A DNA stretch of 64,000 bases from Squalus acanthias (taxonomy: Eukaryota): the NCBI GenBank assembly GCA_030390025.1, contig CM059431.1:121336001-121400000 (forward strand), read 5' to 3'. The number at the start of each line of letters is the position of its first letter. The stretch's first letter is position 1. This document shows, in pieces, positions 4,963-64,000 of this stretch. Under the pieces are notes generated by a model that saw only the letters and a list, made by a program, of their open reading frames with translations, was not told the origin of the DNA and did not search any database. The translations under genes and the position numbers were made by a program.

Positions 4963-7532
4963 TCATGGTTGGTTCAATGCTGTCTGTTGTTCCAGTACCT
5001 CTAGGTAGTCAGGCTCAGTTTGTAGCTTTGCTTTCAGCTCAAAATATTCGTTTTTCGTCTCTTCAACCACAACTTTTTTAGGTCTGGAATACATGATCGC
5101 TTCCATCAGTTTCAGCTCTTCATGCCTCGATGGGTAACGAACATCGAGTTCTGGCTGCAGCGGCGGGATATTTTTCTTCAGGTATTCGGTGATCCCAATC
5201 TGCTGAAGTTCCCTTTCTTTTTCAAGAATATTTCTGTACATTGAACTAGGATCACGGAGGGGCACAAATTCTGGGGTCTGCTCTATTACACTGAATTTGA
5301 TATTGGAACTTGTGAGCAGAGAATCATTTTCTCTCATCATGTGACTCCTGTAAATCATTTTTGGCTCATTTCCATCTTTGCTTTCGCTGTCCAGCTCTAC
5401 ATCTCTCATGTTATATGGATGACTTCTGCACACTGGACCTATTGTGTTAATTGTGTGCTGCTCATATATATTTCCATCTGGTCTTTCTTCAGTATGGTGG
5501 GTCCTCTTATGTCCATATACACTGTACTGAACGTGCAATGGACTGCAGTCCTGTACTGGAGTAGTTTTAAGTTTTTTCTTTGATCTCCTCCGACGATGGA
5601 GCACAAGGACCACCATCCCGGCTGCACTGAATACAATCAATATGAATACCACTAACATGCTAAGGATCAAAACAGAAAGTGGCACCGTGTCCATGATAGA
5701 ACTCAGAAGGCTGGAGGCTGTACTAGTGGCTGCTGTGGTCAGGCTGATATCAATGGGCTGTGTTGGTGGGGCCGGGATATTTATTAATCCAGGACATATC
5801 AATTCATTGTTCAACATTTTCAAATCTTTCTTGGCAAACTTTTCAGGAGATTCGCACATAATCTCGCTCACAGTTACATTTTTATTGAGTTTTTCCATCC
5901 ATTGCTTCAAGCTTACCAAATCACAAGTGCAATCCCATGGATTGTCTTGTAGATCAATCTGAACTAGTAATTCAAGTTGATCTATTACATTGCTCACAGG
6001 GAGATGCATAAAATGGTTATTTTTAAGATTTAACCGTAAGAGTGGAACGCCAGCAAATATGTGTGGAGGCAAACTATGAAGGAGGTTATTGTTCAAATAT
6101 AAGACCTTGAGCTGTAGGAGACAGTGAACGTCCCTGGTACTATCTCTTTGATTATATTGTGTTCCAGATACAAGTATTGAAGGCAATGGAGCCCGATGAA
6201 CATTTCTTTTGTTAATCTTACAATATTGTTCCCATTCAAATACATCTTGTGGAGATTGGTGAGGTTTGCAAAAGCATCATCCTCAATTACTGTTATTCGG
6301 TTGTTCCCTAAATGGAGTAATTCCAGGCTGCCATAACCTTGGAGATCATATTTTGTCACAGACTGGATAATGTTATCAGTCAAATAAAGCTTTATTGGAT
6401 TTGGTGGACTGGGTACAAGGTCTGATAAACTTTTAATGTTTCTTTCTTGACATTTCATTATTTGCCCTACATTTGGTTGTGTGCTGCAATGACATGTTGT
6501 TGTGCAGGGCGATTTTGGATGGGCCGCAGGTCTTGTTATAGGAATTTTGCCATCATCCTGTCCATCAGGTTGTGGAATATATGGATCATTTTTAGGTTCT
6601 TTAATAACTGATTTATTAGCACTCTGAATATGAGTATTATCAGCAACTGGAGTTACCACCAAATGAATTGAATTTATGGGTTCTTCAAAGTCAGTTCCAG
6701 ATCCAGTAGGGCAAATCTCTGTAATTGGTGTTTTGGTTAAAACTTTACCTTGCAGTCTAAATGGGTGCACACAAACAACATCATCGATATTAGACTGGGG
6801 AGGCATGTTTTCCAGCCAGGATCTGAGTGGTAATAAATCACAATCGCATTTCCACAAGTTATCCTTCAGTTGAAGCTCCATTATCCTGCCAATATGCTCC
6901 AAAAGACCAACATAAGGAAGTGAATCTAAGTGATTTCCTCGAAGGTCCAGGTGCGTCAGGGGCACAAAACGGAAGATGTTGGTGGGGAGAAAGGGGATTG
7001 CATTGTCATTCAGGATGAGCACTTTTAGCCGGTGAAGCTTACTGAACGCACCAGGCTCAATAATATGGATTAAATTATTGTCTGCCTGAAGGAATTCCAA
7101 ATTGTCCAGTCCTCGAAATGTGCCCTCTCGCAGTACTTGCAAATAGTTGCCATTTATATGCAAGCGTTTTAGAGAATTAAGGCCAGCGAAAATCCCAGCT
7201 TCCAAGTCTTGCAAATTATTCTTGCCGAGATGTAGTGACAAAGCATTCCTGAAGTTCATGAAGTCATTGGGATTTAACATGCTCACAAAGTTTTCTTGTA
7301 GGTTAAGATTGTAGGTACATGTCTGCGGCGGTTTTATTTGGGATATTTCGTTAATGTCCTTGTTTTGACAGTTTATATGCAGCAAGCCATCTCTTTCCAC
7401 ACAGGAGCAAAGACTCTCACACACTTCCTTGTCTGAAGCATTTGAAGGATCTGCCTTCTGGGAACTGATTAGAACTAAGACTGCACTTAGAAGAAGGATC
7501 CAGGTCAACATTTTCTCAGAAATAAAGTCCAT
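4963..7532 (-). CDS. SLITRK6: SLIT and NTRK-like protein 6, single coding exon; reading frame broken by a 1-bp deletion at about 6118-6122 in this sequence
   Basis: ORFs 6093-7535 and 4963-6186 join into signal peptide + LRR1 (LEFLQADNN, FRFVPLTHLDLRGN, WLENMPPQS) + LRR2 + TM (VPLSVLILSMLVVFILIVFSAAGMVVLVL) + C-terminus EELKLMEAIMYSRPKKVVVEETKNEYFELKAKLQTEPDYLEVLEQQT, which is characteristic of SLITRK6. ATG at 7532; the ATG at 7511 (MLTWILLL) aligns with the mammalian start. The span is 2570 nt, one base short of a multiple of 3. Confidence 0.93.
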
Positions 7533-7556
7533 CAAAATTTCACGGTGTTCAAATAT

Positions 7557-7570
7557 CTGTTAAAAAAAAT
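7557..7570 (-). promoter_or_regulatory. 3' splice acceptor of the SLITRK6 coding exon (exon starts at 7556)
   Basis: Minus strand reads ATTTTTTTTAACAG|ATATTTG, 24 nt upstream of the ATG; SLITRK genes have a non-coding first exon. Confidence 0.75.
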
Positions 7571-8982: not shown

Positions 8983-9185
8983 ACAAAAGCAAAATACTGC
9001 GGATGCTGGAAATCTGACTTAATAACAAAAAATGCTGGAAATACTCAGCAGGTCAGGCAGCACCTGTGGAGAGAGAAACAGAGTTAACGTTCTGACGAAA
9101 GGCCATCGACCTGAAACGTTAACTCTATTTCTCTCTCCACAGATGCTGCCTGACCTGCTGAGTATTTCCAGTATTTTCTGTGTTT
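8983..9185. mobile_element. Penelope-like inverted pLTR remnant nested in CR1
   Basis: Inverted arms of about 63 bp (9029-9091 / 9115-9177); 15-bp TSD ATTGCACAAGCTAGG / ATTACACAAACTAGG. Confidence 0.75.
9089..9123 (+). ncRNA. Minimal type I hammerhead ribozyme motif (PLE-type)
   Basis: GTT-CTGACGA-a-AGGCC-ATC-GACCT-GAAAC-GTT-AAC: CUGANGA core, stem II, GAAA and a palindromic stem III. Confidence 0.6.
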
Positions 9186-10792
9186 ATTACACAAACTAGG
9201 GTTGCATTCCCTGGAATTTAGAAGGTTAAGGGGTGATTTGTACAAGGTTTTCAATATATTAAGGAGAACTGTTAGGGTAGATAGAGAGAAACTATTTCCA
9301 CTGGTTGGGGAAGTCTAGGACTAGGGGACATAGCCTAAAAATTAGAGCGAGGCCTTTCAGGAGTGAAGTTAGGAAACACTTTTACACGCAAAGGGTGGTA
9401 GAAGTTTGAAACTCTCTTCCGAAATTGTTAATTTTACATCTGAGATTGATAGATTTTTGTTAACCTTAGGTTTTAAGGGATATGGGGCAAAGGCGGGTAT
9501 ATGGAGTTTGGTCACAGATCAGCCATGATCTCATTGAATGGAGGAACAGGCTCGAGGTGCTAAGTGCCCTACTCCTGTTCCTATGTTCTTATATGTTCCT
9601 ATGCATCGTCAAGGTGGGTGTAAAATGTGCCCGAGGGTCCCATGGATCTTCTGGACTTTTTAAACTGACCTGCAGTTAACTTAAATGTTTAGACAATCTG
9701 GATGCTGTGAACACACTGTCTAAACATTTTAAATGTCACTGCCTGGAGAGGGGCTAATTGCAAGCACAAGGGCGCAGGAATCTCTGCTTGGCAGCAGAAC
9801 TGACGTTTCAGCCATCAGTATAAATAGGGCACTGCCAGTCTTAGACTCCAAGCAGCAGTCTAAGCGCACCCTTAACATCAGAACAAGTACTATGACAAAC
9901 CTATAGCTCCAATATCCTTCATTTGAATTAAAATATCTAAGGACGAATTTTCATCTTTGCATTCCCAGCACAGAGCTTTGCACACTGGGAGCATATATTG
10001 GGCATTCAAGTATGATCCTAGGACTTTCCAACCATTAACTTTTAATAGACTGAAAATCATGGCAGGGGGCAAGTAGTTCGAAAGCCTTATAGGGCTGAAT
10101 CCGCTTAATGGAGAGAAAATTGCTTGCTGTGCATTTGCAATTTCCCTTGGTGAGCTCAATTAAAATGTGAAGCTCTACACTGGCAAGCACTAAAGATGAA
10201 CATTTACTCTTTTCTGCTTATCTTCAAGCTGCTTATTTTGATGTCACCTTTTTGATCACATTTCACACCACTTATGTAGACGAAAAAGCAGTAATTTATT
10301 TGCTGTGGTTTATCTTTTAGATGTTTGCAGGCCACCAGGCATAACAGTTCATAGTGGTGAGCAGAGTAGAAACAAGCAATTCCTTTCCATCATTTAATAA
10401 TCTTAAACACAACAGATAAACAGCAATATTGCATGAATACATTAGTACTTTACAATATAATACTTGCCACCCGTATTTTCTGTCTGATCTGCTTCTCTAC
10501 AGAGTCTGTCTCCCATTCTCCTCTCAATTGTCTCCAACTACTCCAGATATTAACGTTATAACTATATAGTAATTGTCTTAATATCACATCTTGCAAGATG
10601 TAGTGAGGCATAACCATTCCTGTTCTGCGGTTAGATGGAACATTTTAAAAGTGTATTGACTTTACATTAAAAATTTCTCTTGCCAAGTTAACATGTGGAA
10701 TTATCTTATATACATGATAGAACTCAGTGACTTATACATAAAAGAACAACACCACCATTTGTGGCATTGATACATAACTCAAAGGCTTTGAT

Positions 10793-13006: not shown

Positions 13007-15077
13007 GGCCTCGATTTTAACCCCCTCTCCTCCCACCCCCCAATGGGTGGGGGAGGTATTTAAAATATCAGGATCGGGCAACCCAACCCCGACCCAATCT
13101 CATTCCCGCCCCTTTAAATTTTAAAGTGCACAAATCAGGCCCTAGACGATGCTCCCACAAAAGGCAGGTGGGGGCCTAATTAACATACCAAAGTCGCGGC
13201 CTGTTGACATCATCAGCCCCACAAATTAGATTTAACAGTAAGTGAGGGAGAGTCCCATACTCTGGGATTCCCGGCAGCAGATTCGAGGCAGGAACTGCTG
13301 GCTTCCCGAGGTAAGTGACCCTGTGGGTCAGTAGGAGCAAGAGTGCTCCCCTTGAGCCCCTCAAGGAAACCTTAGGCTTCCCCCAGCCACAATGTTCATC
13401 CTCCCCACCTTCCCAGCCCTCCCAATCTCAAACCTCTCACCAGCCCTCCCGATCTCAAACCTCTCACCAGCCCTCCCGATCTCAAACCTCCAGCCAGCCC
13501 TCCCGATCTCAAACCTCCAGCCAGCCCTCCCGATCTCAAACCTCCAGCCAGCCCTCCCGATCTCAAACCTCCAGCCAGCCCTCCCGATCTCAAACCTCCA
13601 GCCAGCCCTCCCGATCTCAAACCTCCAGCCAGCCCTCCCAATCTCAAACCTCCAGCCAGCCCTCCCGATCTCAAACCTCCAGCCAGCCCTCCCGATCTCA
13701 AACCTCCAGCCAGCCCTCCCGATCTCAAACCTCTCACCAGCCCTCCCGATCTCAAACCTCCAGCCAGCCCTCCCGATCTCAAACCTCTCACCAGCCCTCC
13801 CAATCTCAAACCTCCAGCCAGCCCTCCCGATCTCAAACCTCCAGCCAGCCCTCCCAATCTCAAACCTCTCACCAGCCCTCCTGATATCAAACCTCTCACC
13901 AGCCCTCCTGATATCAAACCTCCAGCCAGCCCTCCCAATCTCAAACCTCCAGCCAGCCCTCCCGATCTCAAACCTCCAGCCAGCCCTCCTGATATCAAAC
14001 CTCCAGCCAGCCCTCCCAATCTCAAACCTCTCACCAGCCCTCCCGATCTCAAACCTCCAGCCAGCCCTCCCGATCTCAAACCTCCAGCCAGCCCTCCCGA
14101 TCTCAAACCTCCAGCCAGCCCTCCTGATATCAAACCTCTCACCAGCCCTCCTGATATCAAACCTCTCACCAGCCCTCCTGATATCAAACCTCCAGCCAGC
14201 CCTCCCAATCTCAAACCTCCAGCCAGCCCTCCCAATCTCAAACCTCCAGCCAGCCCTCCCGATCTCAAACCTCCAGCCAGCCCTCCTGATATCAAACCTC
14301 CAGCCAGCCCTCCCGATCTCAAACCTCCAGCCAGCCCTCCCAATCTCAAACCTCTCACCAGCCCTCCTGATATCAAACCTCCAGCCAGCCCTCCCAATCT
14401 CAAACCTCCTACTAGCCCTCCTGATATCAAACCTCCGACTAGCCCTCCCAATCTCAAACCTCCAGCCAGCCCTCCTGATCTCAAACCTCTCACCAGCCCT
14501 CCCGATCTCAAACCTCAGACTAGCCCTCCTGATATCAAACCTCTCACCAGCCCTCCCGATCTCAAACCTCCGACTAGCCCTCCTGATATCAAATCTCTCA
14601 CCAGCCCTCCCGATCTCAAACCTCCGACTAGCCCTCCTGATATCAAATCTCTCACCAGCCCTCCCGATCTCAAACCTCCGACTAGCCCTCCTGATATCAA
14701 ATCTCTCACCAGCCCTCCTGATCTCAAACCTCTCACCAGCCCTCCCGATCTCAAACCTCTCACCAGCCATCCCGATCTCAAACCTCCCGATCTCAAACCT
14801 CCCGTCAGCTCTCCTGATTACCGACGTTTCCTCAGCTCTCCCACCCGGAGCTGACGCTCACTTCCCAGTGCTGTGGACCATCCCCACGGGTCCCTGGCTG
14901 CAGCCTCCTGCTACTAATGTTTCCTCCCGCCCACCGGCCAGGCTGCCAATTTGGCCGGCTGCCGGGAGGGATATGCTAATGAGGCCCTACCATTACGATC
15001 GGCAGGGCATCCACGTCCTCGGCATTGCCTGGTTCTTTTGGCCTCACTCTTACTGGCTCCCTGTTAATATCGGGGCC
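13007..15077. mobile_element. Harbinger-type non-autonomous element containing a minisatellite
   Basis: TIRs GGCCTCGATTTTAAC / GTTAATATCGGGGCC; 3-bp TSD ATG. Confidence 0.8.
13412..14802. repeat. 27-bp minisatellite, about 51 copies
   Basis: Unit CCAGCCCTCCCGATCTCAAACCTCCAG and variants, seen directly in the sequence. Confidence 0.97.
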
Positions 15078-16436: not shown

Positions 16437-17665
16437 CATAAGAACATAAGAACATAAGAAATAGGAGCAGGAGTAGGCCATATGGTCCTTTGAGCCTGCT
16501 CTGCCATTCAATGAGATCATGGCTGATCTTCGATTTCAACTCCACTTTCCCGCCCGATCCCCATATCCCTTGATTCCCCTAGGGGGAAAAATTGAGTTGC
16601 TTTGCGCCTCCCGTTAGCGCTAATGGGGCGCAAAGCACCTAGTACCCAGGCACGGTGCCGCTAACGCCTCCCGCGAAATTCAGCGGGAGGTTAAAGGCGG
16701 CGGTTGCCGGTAGCACCCCGTGGCGCTGCGCCTCTGGCGATGATGTCATCGCCGTGCACAGCACTCCGCTTGCGCCCCAGCTGCAAACTTCGCTCGCGCC
16801 CCCTGACCTATGTGCCGGACGCTATGTCCGACAGGGCTAGGGTGCCGTGTTTGCGGCTGCGGCGGCGCAAATTAAAGGGCAGGTGCCGGGCGGCCAATTT
16901 TTTGGGGGCCATCTGTCAGCACCTGCCCCCTTTCGCCTCCTCATGCGGGGTGCCGGCCGCGATCGATCAACCCGGCATTCCTCGAGTGCCGGGCTCTTTC
17001 GCCAGGCACCCCGCTCTCCGGTGGTCCAGCAGGGCCCTGGTGCGCACTGCACTAGGCCCCTCCCCTTTAATCAGGGGAGGGAGGCCTGTAATACCGCGGC
17101 GCTACGTGCTAATGTGCGTGGTGCTGTTGCACGTAGTGCTGCGATATTGAATGTTAGCGCCCTAAGAGGGAGGGGGAACGCTTCCAGTAGTGCCCCGCCT
17201 CCTGCTTGGGATGCTTCCACTCAATTTACGACACGGGGGCGCTAACTTTTTTCGGGGCGCTAAAAGTAGCGTCCTGGCGAAGTTAGCGCCCCAATGGGGA
17301 CGTGAACTTATTTTTCCCCCTAGAGTCCAAAAATCTATCGATCTCAGCCTTAAATATACTCAACGACAGAGAATCCACAGCCCTTTGAGGTAGAGAATTC
17401 CAAAGATTCACAACCCTCTGATTGAAGAAATTTCTCCTCATCTCAGTCCTAAATGGCCAACCCCTTATCCTGAGACTATACTCCCTAGTTTTAGACTCTT
17501 CAGCCAGGGGGAACAGCCTCTCAGCATCTACCCTGTCAATCCCCCTCAGAATCTTATATGTTTTAACGATATCACCTCTCATTCTTCTAGGCTCTAGAAA
17601 GTATAGGCCCAATCTACTCAATCTTTCCTCATAGAACAACTGTCTCATCCCAGGAATCAATCTAG
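16437..17665 (-). mobile_element. CR1/HER1 LINE 3' end split by a MITE
   Basis: ATAAGAAC tail repeats; ORF 17283-17747 YEERLSRLGLY...RRNFFNQRVVNLWNSLP. Confidence 0.88.
16582..17320 (-). mobile_element. Harbinger MITE of the same family as 59479-63664
   Basis: Ends GGGGGAAAAATT / TATTTTTCCCCC; the left end matches the reverse complement of 63580-63664; duplicated (C)TA(G) target inside CR1. Confidence 0.88.
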
Positions 17666-20705: not shown

Positions 20706-21547
20706 GGGCGCGATTTTGCCAGCCCTGGGAGGCGGGTTTGGAGGCGGGACTGCCGGGAAAATGGAAGAATTTGGGGGTGGGTGCAAATCCGCCCCCAACC
20801 CGCCTTCATGCCATCTTGCCAGGAGGCGGGTAGCCGTCCCGCGCCGGGTCCCGTCTCCTTGGAGGCGGGAAGGTATTAAAGCCAATTAACTGCCTGTTAA
20901 CAGGTAGTTAACAGGCAGAAAATAGGCTTATCGCCATTTTGCCCACACAAGTGCGGGCTTCCCGAAGGCTCCGAACCCCGCCAGGGTCACCGAGGCGAGT
21001 AGTGGGTCTGCGGGGGTCGGAGGGGTGCAAAAGTGTGCTGTGGAGGTGAGTGATGGGTGCAAGTGTGGAGAGGTGAGTAACTGAGGTTAGTGAAAAGTGT
21101 TAGAAAAAGTGTACTTACCTTTGTTTCTTCCTGCAGGCTTCAGTCGGTGGGTATGCGGAGAGTCTCGCACCTCCGCGGTGGAGATGACGGATGGCCGTTG
21201 CATTCTCCAATGCAACAAGCATCTCATTTCTGCAAAAGAAAGGTTTGATGAGGTCTTGAATTCAAGACCCAGTCAAACTACAGAGAATGTCACTGTTTGA
21301 CAGCTTCACAGAGCTGTCAAACGATGACAATTCATCTGTCAAAAATTTTTGACAGATGAAACGTCGTACGTTGACGTTCTCTGCAACCGACTTTCCCTTA
21401 ATTGGCCTGCTAAGCCTGCTGGGCGGTCTTAACAAGGTCAATCAAGGGAAAATAGCGTGGGTTGGCCAGAAGTTGATGGAGGCGAGACTGAAACCCGACC
21501 AGTGGGTGTCCCACCTCCAAAAGCTCCCCATTCGCAAAATCACCTCC
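20706..21547. mobile_element. Harbinger-type MITE
   Basis: TIRs GGGCGCGATTTTGC / GCAAAATCACCTCC; TSD TGC. Confidence 0.78.
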
Positions 21548-28144: not shown

Positions 28145-28887
28145 GGCCCAGAAATTGATCTCGCTCTGTTCCCGCGGGGGTAAGCCTTTCCCGCGATGTC
28201 TCACCTCGCTTATGCTTTTTCTGATCCAGCTCGCACGAAATTGATGTTCCAGACATCAGCTGTGCTGGGCTTGCGTATCCCAGCGGCGTAGTTAATTCGT
28301 GCGAGCTGTGGGATCACGTGACTCAGTTAGAGCCAATGGCAGCACACCATCTTCCATTCATAAGTCTCACAGCATGGCTGAGAGACTTATGAATCTTACA
28401 CCCCCCCAAAATAACAGCTAAACCTCAATTAAATTTAAAAAAAAACCATCACATTAATAAAATAAGTATAGTTAATTAAATTAACCATTTTAAATAAAAA
28501 ATTAAATTTTTGAAAAAATTTAAAATCTTTTAAAAAGTTATAAAAATAAACTTACCTGTCTTTAAAGTCTATAAAAAAGATATACCTGTAAAAAAAAATT
28601 CAAAAAAATACTTAATTCACTACTTACCTTCTTAAAAGCGGGTCTTACTCCTCCTTTTTACATTTCCAAAATCTTCAGTACTTACCTGCGCGTCCAAAGC
28701 ATGAAGTGCACAGCGTGCGCGCAGCCTGTAGCGCGCACGCGATGCACTCCGGCCCCGCCCCCTTTTCGGAAGAGCAATTGCCGGTTTTCAGCGCATGCGC
28801 AGGGCATGCAGAAAACCGGCAATTGGAGTGGGAATACGCGAGAGTATGCAGTGCGTACTCTCGCGTCCCGGGATCAATTTTCGGCCC
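28145..28887. mobile_element. Harbinger-type MITE, hairpin-rich family (copy 1)
   Basis: TIRs GGCCCAGAAATTGATC / GATCAATTTTCGGCCC; inverted homolog of 45974-46710. Confidence 0.82.
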
Positions 28888-39202: not shown

Positions 39203-39962
39203 GGGCTAGAAATTCCGTAGCGCCCCAACTTTTGAAAAGTAGAAAAAGTAGAAAAAGTAGCGCTAATGATTCTCTCCTGCCGGGAAATTCAGCTTTAGCG
39301 CTCCAAGAGGGAAGTGGAGCGCTAAATCAAGTGCTAACCACTTCTCTTAGGGCGCTAAAGTCCGAGAGCAGGGTGGTAGTGGCAGAGCGCTGAACAATTT
39401 GGAGCGCATTGCTAACGGCATCATAGGCTGCTTCCCTCACTTGAAGGGAAGGGCCAGTGATGGTGCACAGCCGACTTGTCGTCAGTTCTGTGTTGCAAGG
39501 CGACTGCGCGACTGCCATTACAGCCCCAAACACTCTCACAAAGTGGAGGGCTTGGACAACTTGCAGCAATGAAACGTCAAAAACTTTGAGAAGACACCAG
39601 ACTGGTGCAAAGAATAAAGGTTGGCCTACCTGAAAACCATTCCCTTTAATTAACGCTCCCCCAAGCAGCCAGCCGAGTTGACAACGCCTCCTCTTCCTGC
39701 CGTTGTTCACGCCCGGCGATACAGCAGGGGGCGGGAGGCAATTTCACATCTGGGGCGGTAATGAGGCGCTGCGCACTTTATGGCGTCACGATCTGCGAGA
39801 CACTAGAGGCCCAGGCGGTAAGAGTTAGCGCCAGCACTAAACCGGCACTGATGTTTGTGGATGTCGCTGCATTCGCCATGCCCGGTCGCTAACCCCTTAG
39901 TGCCCCGTTAGCACCAACCCCCAGGCGCTAACGGGAGGCGCTATCAACCGAATTTCTTAGAG
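39203..39962 (+). mobile_element. Harbinger MITE related to 59479-63664
   Basis: Starts GGGCTAGAAATTC; shares GGAGCGCTAAATCA and TTAGC...GGCGCTAAC subterminal blocks with both ends of the full element. Confidence 0.75.
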
Positions 39963-45973: not shown

Positions 45974-46710
45974 GGGCCAAAAATTCGGCACTTGCTGGGT
46001 GAGTACGCACTGTGTACTCACCCGTAAGGCCTCCTGAAGTGCCAGTTTCCTGCATGCACTGCGCATGCGTGGGAAACCGGAACTTCTGGTCTCGTGAAGG
46101 GAGCAGTTCAGAGGTGAACCGCGTGCGCGGGAGAGGCTGCGTGCACGCAGCGAACGCAGGTTTTTTTTCAGGTTTCTCCAGGAGGGTAAGTATTGAAGAG
46201 GCTGTGCTTTTAAAAAGGAGGCGCAAGACCCGTTTTCAACAAGGTAAGTGGTTAATTAATTACAATTTAAAAAAAATTTCAACAGGTTTATCTTTTTTAG
46301 ATACTTTAAAGAAAGGTAAGTTTATTTTTAGCACTGTTAAAAAGTATTTTAATTTTTTCAAAAATGTAAATTTTTGTTTAAAGTAGTTAATTTATTAATT
46401 TATAAAAAATTTATTTGAAGTTTAGGTGTTGTTTTGGGGCCGATTTCAATTCATAGATTTGACAGGCCTTCCTGTCAAATCTATGAATGAAAGATGGTCT
46501 GCTGCCATTGGCTCTCCATGGCCCACGTGATCCCAGGGGACGCATCGCACTAACTACGCCCCTGGGATACACAAGCACTGCGCGCCGGCAGCTGCAGGAG
46601 GCCCAGGAGCCGAAGTCCCCGTGGGCCCAGAGGTCAACGGCAGGCGCGGTAGGTAGGTGCGCGCGGGATCCTTGCACCCGCGGGAAGCCAGGGAGCCTAA
46701 TTTCTGTGCC
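45974..46710. mobile_element. Harbinger-type MITE, hairpin-rich family (copy 2)
   Basis: TIRs GGGCCAAAAATT / AATTTCTGTGCC; inverted homolog of 28145-28887. Confidence 0.82.
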
Positions 46711-54267: not shown

Positions 54268-57200
54268 GGGCAAGAAATTTGGTTCCGCAGCGCCCGATTT
54301 TTTGGTGCTGGGGTGCCGTTTCGTGACAAAAATTGCGTCTGTGCCATGCGCACACACATCTGGTGTGTGTCATGCCAGAGGCCATCTTGGTGGGGGCAGT
54401 AGGCTGGGCGTTAGGAGTGGGCGCCGGAGGTATGCTGAGTAGGCAGATCGTGACGTCCATCAGCGTGCGATGCTGATTTGACGCCAGCACTGCCATTTTC
54501 AACCTAAATGCTGGAGCTAACACCCTGTCATAACCTCGCATGGCTGAACATGCATTTATCAGCAGCAATGACCACCCCTACCAGCGATATTTAAAGAGAT
54601 TAGCAACCACTCTAAGGTCAGTTACCGATTAATTTCTACTGGCTCTGTCTAAGTTTGTGGAACAGTTTGGAGCTTTCCAGAGTTGTTTAAAGTTGGCGAG
54701 GTGACAGGGGGTGGTGCTGCTAGTAGAGAAGGCCTTGGTTCTGACTTCAAGGGTTCTGGTCAGGCCACTTGCTCCCAGTCATGGGTGTTCTTGTTGTTAT
54801 TTTTTCGTATGAAGAGAAAAGCTTATAATGAGATGTCTAGTTTGGCTAGCCATTCAATGGCAGCGGGTGTACAATGAGCGGAATCTGTTAGCGCAGACCA
54901 TTGGCGTCCTTAAACAATGCTTCCACTGCCTAGACTGCTCTGGAGGAGCCCTGCAGTACTCACCAGAGCACATCTCAAGAATCATCATGGTCTGCTGCAT
55001 GCCATCATGAGGGCACAGCCCTTGCCACCAGGCATACGACGACCTGCTGCGGAGGAGGAGCAGATGGAGGAGGAGAAAGCGGAAGAGGAGGAAGCAGAAG
55101 GGAGGAGGCAACCCAGATAACCCCATTCTGCCCGGACTGTCCGTGATCATCTCATCCAGCTGCGATACCAGTGAACACAACCCCAATTCTCCGTTCAACA
55201 ATAGTCCAACACCTTACCTTCCCTCTGTTATTGACCATCACAGTGTCCTCTTGGCCACAGTGCTGAAATAAAAGCCACCATGAAAGAAACATTCCAATCC
55301 AACTTTATACACCAATCCATTCAATATTACATAACAAAGTCAACTAATCACCCTTGTGCATTCCTTTAGTACCTGTCTTCAGTGAACCTTTGCCTGTGGC
55401 TGCAGCATGGCTGGTGGAAGGCTGCTGACATTCAGTGGGGGAGACTGCATATGGCATTGCAATACCACTTCGAGCAGCTCTGGGCCTAGAAGGCCCGGCT
55501 GCAGACTGCTCCACCTTGGCATGGGCAGCAGTCTGGGCAGGCTGGCTGACAGGCAACAGCAAGGGCACTGGCGGAGTGGCAGTGGTGGGAGGACGAATGC
55601 TGTCATCCTGAGAGAGGTTTGTGTTCCACGGAGCCACTGTCACTCCCCTGGGTGGCTTCTGCCTGTGCTACAATGGAAGCTGAGACATCAGCCATCTGCC
55701 TCTGTATCATGATTGGGTCCACAAGTGCGCTAATGGAATCGCCCATCACTGCCATGCTGGAAATCATGGGCTCCAAGCTTTGTGCAAAGCCTTTTGCAAA
55801 GTTACTGCCAGACTCCTCCATGCTCCTTGACATTGCATTCAAGCTTTCTGGCAGGCCTGTCAATGCGGCAAGCATTTCCTTGTACATACCCATCAGCATT
55901 CTTCTGTAGGCTGCCCCATCGAAATCCTCATCGGAGTCCTCTGCAGCAGAACTCATGTGCAACCTTGCCCTCCGGGGAGCTGGCACCTGCTCTACCCTTT
56001 CCTCCTGCCCTGGCTGCAGCCCACTCATGCCCGATGACTCACCACGTGCAGATCCTGCCTCTAAGCTACCCTTTAAACTACGCGCAGTGCCAGTATCTGA
56101 GCTGGTGGCTGCGAGTGTCAGATTCTTCATCATCACTCTCCTCTCCCTCTTCTTCTTGCACCAACTGCCTGGCCAGGTTGGATTTCTTGGGTCTCTTAAA
56201 CGAGAAAGGCACAAGGGTAGGGTTGTGATGAGGGGAGGCGGGGTGGGGGGGGGCGGAGCAAGAGGTGCATGCTTACACCATGTGCAGCTTGTAAATCAGA
56301 GGAGATTGTTGGATGAGGGGGAAGTGGGATGTGAGAAGAAGGATTACCTATGAGGATACTGGCATCTTGTATTCTTTCAGCCCCACCACTGGCCACAAAC
56401 TCAGCGATGCCCCTCCCAACAATGGCCAGCACCGTCTCCTCCATGGGAGTCGGGTTATGCAGGCGCGCCTGTCCCCTGCTGGTTAGGTCCTGCTGGCGCT
56501 GGTTGTGAGCCACCTTTTCCTGCAAGAGAAAGAGAAATGTGTCAGTGAGTGTGGTTCAATGTGTTTGGGTGATATGCCTGCCATGGTTGAATAACTGACA
56601 GTGTGTGCAAGCTGTGAGATGTGGGTGTGAGGCTTGCAGCAGTGGTAAGTGTGTGGAGGTGAGGTGAAGCTATAAATGTGAGGTATGAGTCGTGTTTGGT
56701 AGAGATTGTTGGTAATGAGTGATGGGGTTGTGGTGCATTGAGCAATGTGTGATGTTAATGGTGCAGATGGTGGGATATGGCCTTGAAGGTGAATTCACTG
56801 ACCTTGATCACTCGTGTTAGGTCATTAAACGGTGTCCAGGTTCTTAGGATTAAACTGCTGGCATTCACCACAGCGGCTATCTGTTCCCATTAGACTTTAC
56901 ACATTTGCCTGGAGGGCCTCCTAGCCCCCTGTGAAAATAGCCCCTCTCTCCTCGAGTTGAGCTCCTGCGCCAAGGTCTCCAGTGCTGCATCGGAGAACCT
57001 TGGCACCGCTCTCTCCCCTGTTGTGACATCATTGTTGTTTTTACCTCCTCTCACTCTCTTCCCCAGACAGTTCAATGAACTGCTGCAAGCAGAATGCACC
57101 TCCCCTTTAAGAGGTGCAGACTGCCTTTCAGAAGTGGAGGTTAGCTTTGATTGGTGCTAGCCTTGCACGAACTTGGGCCCCCTGCTGAGCGTTCAGCCAC

Positions 57201-57357
57201 TCTGCAGCATATTCCACACTGGGCTGAACGCCACAATCACGCTAATCAGCAGACAGCATGAAGTTAGCGTGTTTCCTGCATTCCTTTGAACGGGCGCAGG
57301 GTGACTGTGCATTGCGGTACCCAATCCCATTTTCAAGGGCAAATAAATTTCTAGGCC
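54268..57357. mobile_element. Internally deleted Harbinger (transposase C-terminus on +, 3-exon Myb/SANT gene on -)
   Basis: TIRs GGGCAAGAAATTT / AAATTTCTAGGCC; QTIGVLKQCFHCLDCSGGALQYSPE; AVPRFSDAALETL; donor at 56802, acceptor at 56520. Confidence 0.88.
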
Positions 57358-58607: not shown

Positions 58608-58861
58608 ATAGGAATCAGGAGAATTCTCAGGAAAGGCTGTAATGACAGCAGTTGGAGTCTGAAAGCCAAGAGTGTTTTCTGGAGAATCTTTCAGAGCAGC
58701 AGACTCAGCAGAATGAGAAAAGTTACATGCAGAAGAAAAAAGGAATGGCACCATTAGAAAAACCTGTTGGAGTAGACTTTGGAGAGGTAGTGGCCGTGAC
58801 ATTATCACTATTGGTAATCAGGAGAGTGCTGGCGTAACAGTGGGGCTTGGTTTTAATTACT

Positions 58862-58996
58862 TTCTGATGAAAGGTCATCGACCTGAAACATTAACTCTGT
58901 TTCTCTCTCCACACATGCTGCATGACCGGCTGAGTGTTTTCCAGCATATTCTGTTTTTGCTTCAGATTTCCAGCACCTACAGTATTTTGCTTTTGA
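58862..58996 (+). mobile_element. Penelope-like pLTR fragment with a hammerhead core (58864-58889)
   Basis: CTGATGA-a-AGGTC-ATC-GACCT-GAAAC; same family as 8983-9185. Confidence 0.7.
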
Positions 58997-59839
58997 CTTA
59001 CTTGAATGTGTCTGCTTGGCTCAGTTGGTAGTGTGTTTGTCTTTGAGTCAAAAGATTGTAGGTTTATTTGAGCAGGGTAGTAAAGTACTTAGGCTATTGG
59101 TAGAGGTGCTGGCTTTGACATTCCTGGGGCCGCTCTCTGTTAATGCAAATGCGGTGTTGTGGAGACTTTGCCTGCCCTTGTCCATCCCAGGCTAAATGAA
59201 AAAAAGGTAAGGAGCTCCAAGGGGTGCCATTCACCATTTGAAATAAGGTAATCGATCTCCTCTGGGACCAATTACCTTTCTGTTGGGAGCTTCTAGGAAC
59301 ATTACAGGTATTACAGCGGTATTCATGCCAACTCTCAGCGGGTGTGAGTTCCACTGAGGCCTAAGGAGGGCATAAAGGATGGAATTTCCCAGGGAAGCCT
59401 GGGAACTGTTCCAGCCACGCCCCCTTGAGGTTACAGGGCAGGTGGAAGAGGATGTGATTTGGCGGTATAAAAATCTAAGGGGGAGAAATTCGGTATCGCC
59501 CCGTTTGGGGCGCAATTATTGGCTAGGCGCAAAGTTTAGCGCCTGGTGTTGATGATCGCCTCCGACTGCCAACTTGGCTTCTATCGCCCCTGGAGGTGAT
59601 TGGAGCGCTAAATCAGGTGCTACACACCTGTCTTAAGGCGCAAAGGCTGAGGAGCGAGGCGCTAACTCAGAGCGCGGGCGAAGCTCAGGTGATGTCAGTT
59701 AGCGATGGAACACAGACACACTGGCGCCGGCCAGTTCTTAAAGGGGAGGGGCGATCTTGCTCTCCAGCCACACCCTGCTCATTGGAGCCTTGAATCTCGG
59801 CCTGGACAGACCTCAACCTCAAAGCTGCTGCAAAGGACT

Positions 59840-61867
59840 ATGGAGAGGGCCAGGGAACGAGCTCAGCGCTTCAGCGACCGGGCCTTGGTGGCTCTGGTTG
59901 GCTCAGTGAAGCACCGAAGAGCAATACTGTACCCAGAGAGTGGCAGGAGGCCATTCCCACGCCACTATAGAAAAGTGTGGAGGGAGGTGGCTCAGCACGT
60001 CTCCTCCAGGAGCATGGTGCCCAGGACCCATACGTAATGTTGGAAAAAGTTCAATGACCTCACTCGGGTGGTCAGGGTGAGTGGCTGCTTTTCAATAACT
60101 CTCTTAATCCCTCCATCTCAACCTCACTCTATGCCCAGAGGGTGTAAAAATCCCAATACCCAACACTCATCGAAGACCTATGGCCATCTCATAAAACACA
60201 CACGCACATTCCACACCTTGCATACATTAAGGGCTGTTCAACTATGGGAGGAACATCAGGCAAGCACATGGCTGCATACATTAAGGGCTATTCAACTATG
60301 GGAGGCACACCAGGCAAGCACATGGCTGTATATTTACTCAGACGCCATCCTTTTTCTTGCAGGCCAGGCTATCTCACAATAGGAGGCAGCAGCAACAGAC
60401 GGGTGGAGGGCCGCCTCAGCTGCAAACCCTCAGCGATCTGGAGGCCCACGTCCACAAGATCGTCGCAAGCCAGGTGATAGGTCCTGTCGCCGCTGGAGAG
60501 GTCGACGCCCTTCGGGACAGCAATGGTAAGGTCATCAGCTTTCTCTCCTCTCTCATTCCACTTGTCCCTCACAACACCAGCCTTTTACACTTTCAATCCA
60601 ACTTACTAACTCTCTCCAGTCCTTGCTCCCTTACTGCCCCCCTGTCCTGACGCTAAAGCCACCCTTGTACCTCCCTGCTTTCAGATGGTGAACCACCAGC
60701 TGAAGAGACGGGCCCTCAAGCAGCCAGTGTGAGCGACACCACAGGCGAGGAGGAAGAGGAAGCCGGAGCCTCAACGCCAACGTCTCCCGAGGGAGCCCAT
60801 GCCCACACTGGGACCACGCCTTCCCTGGAGGGGAGCAGGGGGGAAGGGTCTGATGAGGATGAAGCTCCGGGACCCAGCGGGCTGCAGCAACGCCATGGGG
60901 GTAGGGAAGCTCGGGGGCCTTCTCCCCGGAGGGAGAGTAGGCCAGTGAGTCCTGCTGCCCTGGATGCAGAGTAGGAGCGGCTCATCGCTGAAATGAACAC
61001 CCAGGCGGTGAACATGCACACTCAGCTCATGAGTGCAATGGGAAGGGTGCCCGAAAGCATTGATGCAGTGGCAAGGAGTGTGGAGCACTCCGCTGCAGCA
61101 CAGGCCGACGCAACGCAACTGCTTAGTGCTGCAATTCAGTCACTGGCTGCCGTGATCCAATCTCAGACTGCTCTCATGCAGTCTCAGATTGAGGCAACGC
61201 AAGCACTGCCTGCTGCCATTGTCGCTGGTTCAGCCACATTGCCCCGGGGCTCTCATGGCACCACAACAGGCCAGTAATCTATGGTCCAGCAGATTGCTCC
61301 GGATGCTGAGGTGCTGCCCCATGGGAGTGCCAGTGTGTCGGTCGAGCAGGGAGGTGCTGTCCTCTCTCAGGACGACAGCATTCCTGCTCCCACCACTGTC
61401 ACTTCACAGAATCCCCACAATGCAGATAGAGGCCATTTCGGCCCATCGAGCCTGCACCAACACATATCCCACCCTATCCCCGTAACCCCATGTATTTAAT
61501 CCCCCTAACACTAAGGGTCAATTTATCATAGCCAAATCAACCTAACCCGCACGTCTTTGGACTGTGGGAGGAAACCGGAGCAAACCCGGATTAAACCCAC
61601 GCAGACACGGGGAGAATGTGCAAACTCCACACAGACAGTCACCCGAGGCCGGATTCGAACCCGGGTCCCTGGCGCTGTGAGGCAACAGTGCTAACCACTA
61701 TGCCACCGTGTCACCATTTCACTTCCCCATTGCACTTGCCACCGCCTGTAACCCAGCCAGCCCAGACTGCTGCCGCCCATGCAGAGTTGGTGCAGTCTGC
61801 AGCCGGGGCCTCCAGGCCCAGAGCTGGTCGAGGGTGTCCTTCAAGGGCATCTGCACTGTTTGTAAAA
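59840..61867 (+). pseudogene. Harbinger Myb/SANT-like DNA-binding protein, 3 exons (59840-60076, 60363-60525, 60685 to about 61867)
   Basis: MERARERAQRFSDRAL...VWREVAQHVSS...*CWKKFNDL; GT-AG introns in compatible phases 0 and 1; stops at 60035, 60972 and 61275, plus a SINE insertion. Confidence 0.82.
61403..61708 (-). mobile_element. HE1-like V-SINE inserted in the Harbinger Myb gene
   Basis: Near-identical reverse complement of 52941-53246; TGTCAC duplication. Confidence 0.9.
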
Positions 61868-61931
61868 TAAAAAAGTTGTTGTATTCAAAATGTACATGTT
61901 TGGCCTTTGGAATCATTGCTGCCTTGGCCGG

Positions 61932-63160
61932 CTATAGGGGTTGTGGGTTGCTTTCCATCATGTTGTTCTCCATGCCAGAAGCCATCTTCTGAGTAGGGGC
62001 CCAGAAGCGGCTTGTTATCAGCCATTGACGGACGGCCCTTGCAGTTTCAACATTGTGGGCCTCCCTCCCGCCTTGGTGCTGATGCTGATCATCCTCCTCA
62101 TCCTCCTCCTCTTCCTCCTCCTCCTCCTCAGGTGGTGCACCAATCCCTGGTGACATTGGCTGGGTCCTGAGGATTGCAAGGTTATGAAGCATGCAGCACA
62201 CAACTATGAAGAGGGAGACTCACTCAGGAGAGTACTGCAGGGCTCCTCCTGAGTGGTCCAGACAGTGGAACCATTGCTTGAGCACGCTGATCGTCTGCTC
62301 AATGATGTTCCTGGTGGCGAGATGGCTCTCATTGTACCACAGCTCAGCAGGGGTGTTGGGGTTACAGTGTGGTGTCATCAGCCAGGTGCAGAGTGGGTAA
62401 CCCTTGTCCCCGAGGAGCCAACCACTTGGCTGATGCGGTGCCTGGAAAAGGTCTGGCACAGCAGTCTGGCGCAGGATGAAAGCAGCGTGGCTGCTGCCAG
62501 GATAGCAGGCATTGTCGGCGAGTATCAGCTGTCTGTGGTCACAGACCAACTGGACATTTAAGGAGTGGAACCCCTTGCGGTTTTGGAAAACCTCTGCATT
62601 CTCATGCGGTACCCGCAATGCCACAAACGTGTAGTCAATGGCGCCCTGCACCATGGGGAAGCCCGCTATCCTTGCAAAGTCAAATGCGCGTTCATGCTGT
62701 TTGGCCCGGATCATCGAGAAAGAGATGTACTGGCGGCTCCTTTTATACAGGGCATTTGTCACCTCCCGGATACAGCAATGGACCGCAAACTGGGAGATAT
62801 TGACAATGTCCCCAGTAGCTGCTTGAAAGGAGCCGGTGGCATAAAAATTCAGAGCCACTGTGACCTTCACTGCCACCGACAGAGACGCCCTGGTCCTCAG
62901 TTGAGGCTGCAGATCTAGTTGCAGCAGTTGGCAGAGCTCAGTGACCACCTCCTTGCTGAAGCACAGCCTACGCAAACACTGCTCCTCAGACAAATGAATG
63001 TAGGAGAATTGTTCCTGGAATACCCTGGGATGGTAAGGTCTACTGTGCAGAGGCCCACTGGCCCTCCTTCCTCTGTCCATGATTGCCAATCTCTCTCTGC
63101 GTCTCTGATGCCTCTGATTCTGCAGGCGCAGGACCATGCCCCGAATCAGTGCAGCCCCCA
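61932..63160 (-). pseudogene. Harbinger (HARBI1-like) DDE transposase with one premature stop at 62220-62222
   Basis: GFPMVQGAID, NRKGFHSLNVQLVCD, WLLGDKGYP, RNIIEQTISVLK, CCMLHNL; ORFs 62220-63230 and 61932-62201 are in the same frame. Confidence 0.9.
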
Positions 63161-64000
63161 CAGTCTCTTGACAATCGAAGTAATGAAGGTCAAATCCAAA
63201 AGAACCTGCAAAGTGCTGCTCAGTAGCCAAAACTCCTTCACACAGTGTTGACCCTCTACAGAAGTCTCTCTCTCTCTCTCTTTCAGAATCTCTATCAGAA
63301 TGAGTGGTGCAAAAATGTCTACCACAAAAAAAGGCAGGAAGAGGGTGCCTTTAAATAGCGCTCCCCAGCCCCTTTCTGACTGCAAACGCTCCCCTTTACC
63401 TGTCGTTGCTTGCAGCAGGTGGAAAGGAGGGGGTCACCACTCAATATCCGGTCCGGGGCACCACGGGGCGTTGCACGCTCGACTGACGTCACGATCTACA
63501 GGCGCAGGAGATCGTGGCGGTTGAGTTTAGCGTCGCCGCAAAAACTCTGGTCAATTTTGCGAGCGTTGCAAACATCGCCGCACCTGGGCGCTAGTTGCTT
63601 TGCGCCCCATTAGCAACCTCTTAGGGCGCTAACTGAAGGCGCAAAGCAACCAAATTTTTCCCCCTAAGTCCTTACTTTATTTGTAATAGGCAGAAACTAT
63701 ACTTTGACTTATCAGACCTGGGTTTGTATCTAGCCCAAACTGCTGGGATAATATGGGATGGTGCTACGCTCTAAGTAGAAAAGTTGTACTTGCAAACAAT
63801 ATGGGTCGGAGATAGGGCTAAAAAATTGTAGCTCTGATTCTCCAACCCGCAGTCCCTGTGCCATTTATGGCTTTTGTTTCTTATCCAGCTGCAAGAATTC
63901 TAAGTTAACAGTTTCAGTTGAGTCCTATTGAACAGAATTGCACAGTATAAATGACCTGAAAGGATGGCTGGGGGAAGGAAATGTCAATGGTGAAACAGGT

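Follow-up and report, generated by a model that had tools for sequence, protein, structure and literature searches.

Two diverged copies of a short DNA element, inversely oriented within the 64-kb window (the entire stretch of DNA analysed here), share three stems in which both arms have repeatedly changed in step, with pairing kept despite the difference in sequence. This covariation signal is real, and we favor, with a probability of roughly 0.55, the interpretation that these stems are DNA palindromes, namely, inverted repeats with short loops, in which polymerase template switching used each arm as a template for rewriting the other.

The first-pass annotation had placed two diverged inverted copies and, within each of them, three stems at the coordinates listed in Table 1, and both the copies and the stems were confirmed there. 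The copies, A and B, are homologous end to end, with 522 of the 710 aligned columns identical, and are best conserved in an AT-rich core (mostly 80–87% in 50-column windows). Both have imperfect 12-bp terminal inverted repeats that start with GG and resemble the ends of the element at 59479-63664, which carries DDE_Tnp_4, and both are flanked by triplets that may represent a 3-bp target duplication, with one mismatch per copy. None of the four overlapping stop-free frames in A and B matches a Pfam domain, and no reading frame is shared between the copies. These ends, the non-coding character and the transposase-bearing neighbors with related ends identify A and B as a non-autonomous DNA element of the PHIS/Harbinger-like type. 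From the left end, the element consists of a GC-rich arm with CACGTG and CCAAT, which we take to be an E-box and a CCAAT-box, that is, putative promoter-like motifs; stem 1; the AT-rich core; three ACTTACC motifs; and then stems 4, 2, and 3, in that order, followed by the right end. As to the designation "MITE family", an nhmmer search detected no third copy in the 64-kb window, so that "family" refers here to two copies (n = 2, two copies per 64 kb); we infer that these belong to two subfamilies of the element. A scan of metagenome contigs with a 20-letter motif yielded 15 loci, none of which (0/15) aligns past the motif itself, and viral contigs, scanned with a gapped motif, contained no match.

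Table 1. Features of the two element copies, and the two-gene element in the same window
Feature	Position	Strand	Description
Copy A	28145..28887	+	Non-autonomous PHIS/Harbinger-like element, 743 bp; flanking triplets AAT, ATT
Left terminal inverted repeat of A	28145..28156	+	Imperfect, 12 bp
CACGTG and CCAAT motifs	28315..28337	+	Conserved
Stem 1 in A	28356..28394		17/18 pairs, 3-nt loop; 4 firm both-arm changes relative to B and one that is indel-dependent
Three ACTTACC motifs (28550, 28622, 28680)	28550..28686	-	Kept in B; the opposite strand of A reads (C/A)AG-GTAAGT, the 5' splice-site consensus
Stem 4 in A	28705..28748		16/18 pairs; disrupted in B (6 one-sided changes, 0 compensated)
Stem 2 in A	28775..28825		15-bp outer stem, invariant 6-bp inner stem; 2-3 both-arm changes
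Stem 3 in A	28836..28866		Near-perfect palindrome centered on a single base, with one break of the CpG-decay type; both arms changed at 2 pairs
Right terminal inverted repeat of A	28876..28887	-	
Copy B	45974..46710	-	737 bp; 73.5% identity to A; plus-strand flanking triplets AAT, TAT
Stem 3 in B	45997..46023		Perfect 10-bp arms, CpG-decay break further in, outer end frayed
Stem 2 in B	46036..46086		13/15 outer pairs; one CpG-decay-type break
Palindrome in B only	46136..46151		Perfect, 16 bp, loop-less; all 3 A/B differences there turn a mismatch into a pair
Stem 1 in B	46449..46488		18/18 pairs, 4-nt loop
Inverted repeat in B	46530..46568		Perfect, 10 bp, 19-nt spacer; 3 pairs unpaired in A
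Two-gene Harbinger element	59479-63664		TAA/TAA duplication; DDE_Tnp_4 frame ends before the domain end; Myb-like gene broken

The window, a repeat-rich region of the vertebrate type, contains several Harbinger-type elements, with ends that resemble those of A and B, as well as a leucine-rich-repeat gene. The two-gene element carries an inserted 310-bp repeat (61404-61713); another element (54268-57357) combines ends similar to those of A and B with AAT/AGT flanks and a transposase remnant, and the frame at 41704-42069 matches Myb_DNA-bind_5. No autonomous parent with internal similarity to A and B was found in the 64-kb window, and derivation of A and B from a neighboring Harbinger element found no support: among 11 other element ends or short elements compared with them, none gave a local alignment with z > 3. 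The leucine-rich-repeat gene (4963-7559, minus strand), which encodes a membrane protein and is presumably SLITRK-like, is split into two overlapping frames near 6096-6276, by a frameshift or a sequence error. Elsewhere, the window contains a palindromic element (9020-9186; 72-nt arms, 92% complementary) with a related, rearranged copy at 58859-59004, and a tandem array (13413-14787) of ~51 copies of a 27-bp unit that is open in several frames.

Three unrelated short Harbinger-like elements (16583-17320, 20706-21547, and ~39203-39962) contain 3, 4, and 2 local inverted repeats, respectively, compared to 0.07 in shuffled sequences, 0–1 in eight ends of longer elements, and 0–0.74 per 740 bp in four background stretches; thus, multiple hairpins are a common trait of such elements. 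At 738–842 bp, these elements are strikingly close to A and B in size; target duplications are TAG/TAG for the element at 16583-17320 and TGC/TGC for the one at 20706-21547.

Stem 1 had been described as having five compensated positions between A and a perfect 18-bp stem in B. The stem in B is indeed perfect and four of these positions are firm, the fifth being the loop-closing pair beside a 1-nt indel and, accordingly, alignment-dependent. Across the three stems, pairing is imperfect, with 2 of the 52 pairs unpaired in A and 5 of 52 in B (7 of the 104 pair-cells altogether). In the MAFFT alignment, 9 of the 52 pairs show Watson-Crick changes in both arms, with stems 1, 2, and 3 contributing 4, 3, and 2, respectively; the count becomes 8 in a global pairwise alignment and 10 when the stems are aligned by register. 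Under independent substitution, at rates derived from the unpaired columns, 1.5 both-arm changes are expected in the 44 pairs defined in A (P ~3e-5); when the uncompensated stem 4 is counted as well, 9 changes are observed versus 2.1 expected in 60 pairs (P ~3e-4). Controls with slid partners produced 0–1 both-arm changes. It is therefore highly improbable that the covariation results from chance, an alignment artefact or symmetric CpG decay. Two of the 10 changes do depend on the alignment, but P is ~2e-4 even with 8 changes, and random mutants at 27% divergence reach at most 2 compensations (150 runs per copy). A transposase hairpin located elsewhere in the window does have apparent compensations produced by symmetric CpG decay, but such decay was rejected as the cause of the nine changes in A and B, none of which is of the CpG-decay type. 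That hairpin (62221-62255 compared to ~54936-54970, within the transposase coding region) displays false covariation, with 3 both-arm changes, 2 of which are accounted for by symmetric CpG decay in each copy.

The rate of the both-arm changes bears on their mechanism. These changes affect ~0.18 of ~50 pairs, compared to a background divergence of 0.27 at unpaired sites, that is, ~60% of the background rate. Pure arm-to-arm copying predicts approximately the background rate, and the observed one is slightly lower (binomial P 0.05–0.09 in a simple model). Two simple models of selection on independent mutations, with unpaired sites assumed to be near-neutral, yield 0.3–2.5 compensations in 50 pairs at 5–12% mismatch, with P <=0.004 for at least 8. 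Within these simple models, the both-arm rate is too high for selection on independent mutations, and therefore a coupled mutation process likely lies behind the stems, whatever selection contributes. The spectrum was compared as well: compensation via G-U intermediates favors transitions, whereas 5 of the 9 both-arm changes are transversions, no different from the background spectrum (P 0.47; 47 transitions among the 155 changes between A and B outside the stems), although a transition share of 60% is also compatible with nine changes (P 0.27).

Changes of the CG-to-TG/CA type account for 0 of the 9 both-arm changes but for 3 of the 7 unrepaired breaks (4 if the frayed end of stem 3 is included). 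Between A and B, 22 CpGs are shared, 10 show deamination-type changes and 15 other changes, and the CpG observed/expected ratio is 1.14 in A and 0.87 in B compared to 0.41 in the window. This slight CpG decay, together with the high CpG ratio, implies that most of the divergence was free of methyl-CpG decay. Because the both-arm changes never represent CpG decay and the unrepaired breaks often do, the arm copying probably took place in the mobile lineage. The history of the element would then include a long mobile phase with homogenization of the arms, followed by a short neutral decay once inserted.

A related pattern emerges among the other repeats of the window, where the non-CpG transition share is 0.38 (138/365) in 6 Harbinger-Harbinger alignments compared to 0.60 (225/375) in 15 other repeat alignments, which probably represent mostly retroelements. 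Transversions outnumber transitions in all six Harbinger-Harbinger pairs (28269/46576, 40779/55052, 41266/56123, 41573/56654, 54893/62298, and 55446/61855), and 3 of the 15 others are transversion-leaning as well, besides one 1:2 case; the comparison includes alignments of at least 100 columns, shorter ones having been omitted, and the alignments are mutually non-independent. The difference hints that a separate mutation process might operate in mobile lineages of DNA transposons.

The initial list of three stems left out other inverted repeats that are not conserved between the copies, namely, stem 4 of A and two perfect repeats present only in B (Table 1). Compensation in stem 4 differs from that in stems 1–3 (Fisher P 0.02), and the register of symmetry in this place differs between the copies, with stem 4 in A versus the loop-less 16-bp palindrome in B. 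At least one new palindrome appears in 11–13% of random mutants, and with n = 2 the gains and losses of palindromes are unpolarized, so these cases serve as supporting evidence only.

Template switching could account for these observations as follows. A mutation in one arm would be either erased or copied into the other arm, where it would look like a compensatory change. Such copying would be active mainly while the lineage is mobile, a plausible setting being the gap-repair synthesis that follows excision, and resting copies would only decay. The stem cores that do not vary probably correspond to protein-binding or promoter-like motifs, and a folded RNA would be unnecessary. The first-pass annotation had offered two options, a structured or small RNA carried by the element and arm-to-arm conversion. 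The former gained no positive support, whereas the latter fits best because the both-arm rate is close to the background in near-perfect stems, the spectrum is transversion-rich, and some of the palindromes are lineage-specific. Published work is in line with this mechanism: template switching perfects near-palindromes and may keep apparent DNA hairpins without selection (PMC5453318), can both create and repair RNA hairpins (bioRxiv 10.1101/2021.04.15.439925), homogenizes inverted repeats at promoters (PMC13100816), and has been proposed to occur during transposon gap repair, as a model for MITE formation (PMC3814204). Several observations run against it, at least in the purely neutral form. 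When the loops were inspected by eye, none showed an inverted spacer, which would most clearly betray template switching; both-arm changes accumulated at slightly less than the background rate; and stem 4, although as long as stems 1–3, is not maintained in B, such that stems 1–3 could be specifically selected. Furthermore, neutral copying needs a homogenizing rate that we estimate at roughly 30 times the point-mutation rate. With two copies and no outgroup, the polarity and timing of the changes are inferred.

The retention of stems 1–3 across 27% divergence, with stem 4 not retained, also fits an interpretation that we consider possible although doubtful on balance, namely, that stems 1–3 are selected as DNA, either as symmetric sites for the element's Myb/SANT-like protein or host factors, or as cruciforms or single-strand hairpins aiding assembly of the transposition complex, with template switching supplying the changes and selection for mobility retaining the three stems. 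The inner cores are invariant (6/6 pairs in the inner stem 2); a YRCGCAS-type motif, chosen post hoc, occurs 6–7 times per copy compared to 0.4 per 740 bp of the window; and two other short elements build inverted repeats from a motif that is common to the ends of the element at 59479-63664. The core of stem 3 may resemble the Myb-binding motif of zebrafish Harbinger3_DR, a likeness that we did not use as evidence. Binding sites of the Myb-like protein are terminal or subterminal (PMC13668399), and the mobility of mPing is altered by internal sequence (PMC9921582). However, four changes within 6 bp of an arm of stem 1 are hard to reconcile with a single sequence-specific protein, the window lacks an autonomous partner with internal similarity, and the mPing study reports no shared sequence-specific internal element and favors GC content or nucleosomes (PMC9921582). 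The premise that Harbinger elements need nothing internal is too strong given that internal sequence tunes mPing transposition, although that study invokes no secondary structure (PMC9921582). A broader proposition, that stems 1–3 are selected parts, whether of DNA (hairpins, cruciforms) or of RNA (a module containing the three conserved splice-donor motifs), which a vertebrate cut-and-paste system of the Harbinger type would need for mobilization or escape from silencing, appears rather improbable to us; if true, the multi-hairpin build of ~750 bp in unrelated families would amount to a structural code renewed by transposition-tied, transversion-rich copying.

We regard as unlikely a selected RNA module, either a structured non-coding RNA or a small-RNA precursor, to which the stems and the three splice-donor-like motifs would belong and for which the CpG-rich end of the element would drive transcription. 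The ACTTACC core is invariant in the three donor-like motifs, the counterparts of which in B (46185-46321) retain the full consensus in two cases and have the exon-side base changed in the third, and the promoter-like motifs are conserved. A and B together hold 6 of the 15 ACTTACC motifs of the window, and conservation of the three motifs on one strand hints at transcription of the element, as far as can be judged from sequence. One more ACTTACC lies at 21113, in the unrelated element at 20706-21547. The folds of A and B reach z-scores of -10.5 and -8.7, respectively, compared to 20 shuffles each, but any perfect palindrome scores high as RNA, whatever its role. Searches with Rfam 15 gave 0 matches at the gathering score in the window; below it, A has 7 weak, generic hairpin hits and B has 3, all of them well short of the threshold and assigning homologous stems to different families. 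A tRNA scan of the window came out empty. The canonical pri-miRNA stem is ~35 bp long and gives a 22-nt product, and the stems in question, with 14–21 bp in 31–51 nt, are too short for it. The two strands fold with similar energies and neither is consistently favored, a comparison of A with B found no G-U strand preference in the stems, there is no transition excess among the compensations, and the loops, of 1–4 nt, are not conserved motifs. Exaptation of A and B as host regulatory elements, with the stems under host selection, strikes us as barely credible: the copies are CpG-rich and carry promoter-like motifs, but each of them contains unrepaired stem breaks, and both are paralogous insertions in repeat-rich DNA, at least ~20 kb from the sole host gene seen. 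Since the loci are paralogous insertions, the stems common to both copies arose before insertion.

If arm-to-arm template switching is indeed responsible, these copies would represent a clear natural case of hairpin covariation that comes from DNA copying rather than from RNA function. They would thus be a cautionary example for the discovery of RNAs in transposons by covariation, and would offer a high-copy system in which to measure how often template switching occurs. Should selection act on the stems as well, a cut-and-paste element would depend on internal symmetry or structure. In the open literature, with Repbase and subscription journals outside the scope of the search, we found no report of internal palindromes or compensated stems in vertebrate Harbinger elements, and the accessible portions of PMC3016246 and PMC8437027 added nothing on hairpins in such elements. 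Both the element type and the mechanism are known; a vertebrate Harbinger-like element that combines the two seems to be undescribed in the open literature.

With respect to the known transposon groups, a TWA target duplication is the rule in the strict PIF/Harbinger group, and ANT in the Pangu group of PHIS (PMC4482050). The flanks of A and B (AAT/ATT and AAT/TAT) do not fit TWA, so that membership in the strict group was rejected, and fit ANT imperfectly, in 3 of the 4 triplets and with the members of each pair differing; therefore, we use the name PHIS/Harbinger-like, non-autonomous. The flanking triplets of A and B would accord with the A-N-T pattern of the Pangu elements at the cost of one mismatch per copy, but the duplication is imperfect in both copies, no empty site was seen, and no transposase is tied to the family (PMC4482050). 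A and B share with Tourist-like MITEs and other non-autonomous PHIS elements, such as mPing, the short length, non-coding content, G-rich terminal inverted repeats and 3-bp flank, and they have neighbors with similar ends and DDE_Tnp_4 and Myb/SANT-like remnants (PMC9921582, PMC4482050). Unlike mPing, A and B have non-TWA flanks and, over ~740 bp, several local hairpins with arms that change in step, a feature that the accessible text on mPing does not describe (PMC9921582). The closest parallel to the proposed mechanism is the correction of quasi-palindromes (PMC5453318; bioRxiv 10.1101/2021.04.15.439925; PMC13100816), which likewise involves near-perfect inverted repeats with short spacers, clustered both-arm changes, and perfected repeats that are lineage-specific. 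In contrast to the cases described in the accessible portions of these sources, no spacer inversion was seen in A and B, and template switching would have acted repeatedly on the same stems within a mobile-element lineage, at about the point-mutation rate per pair.
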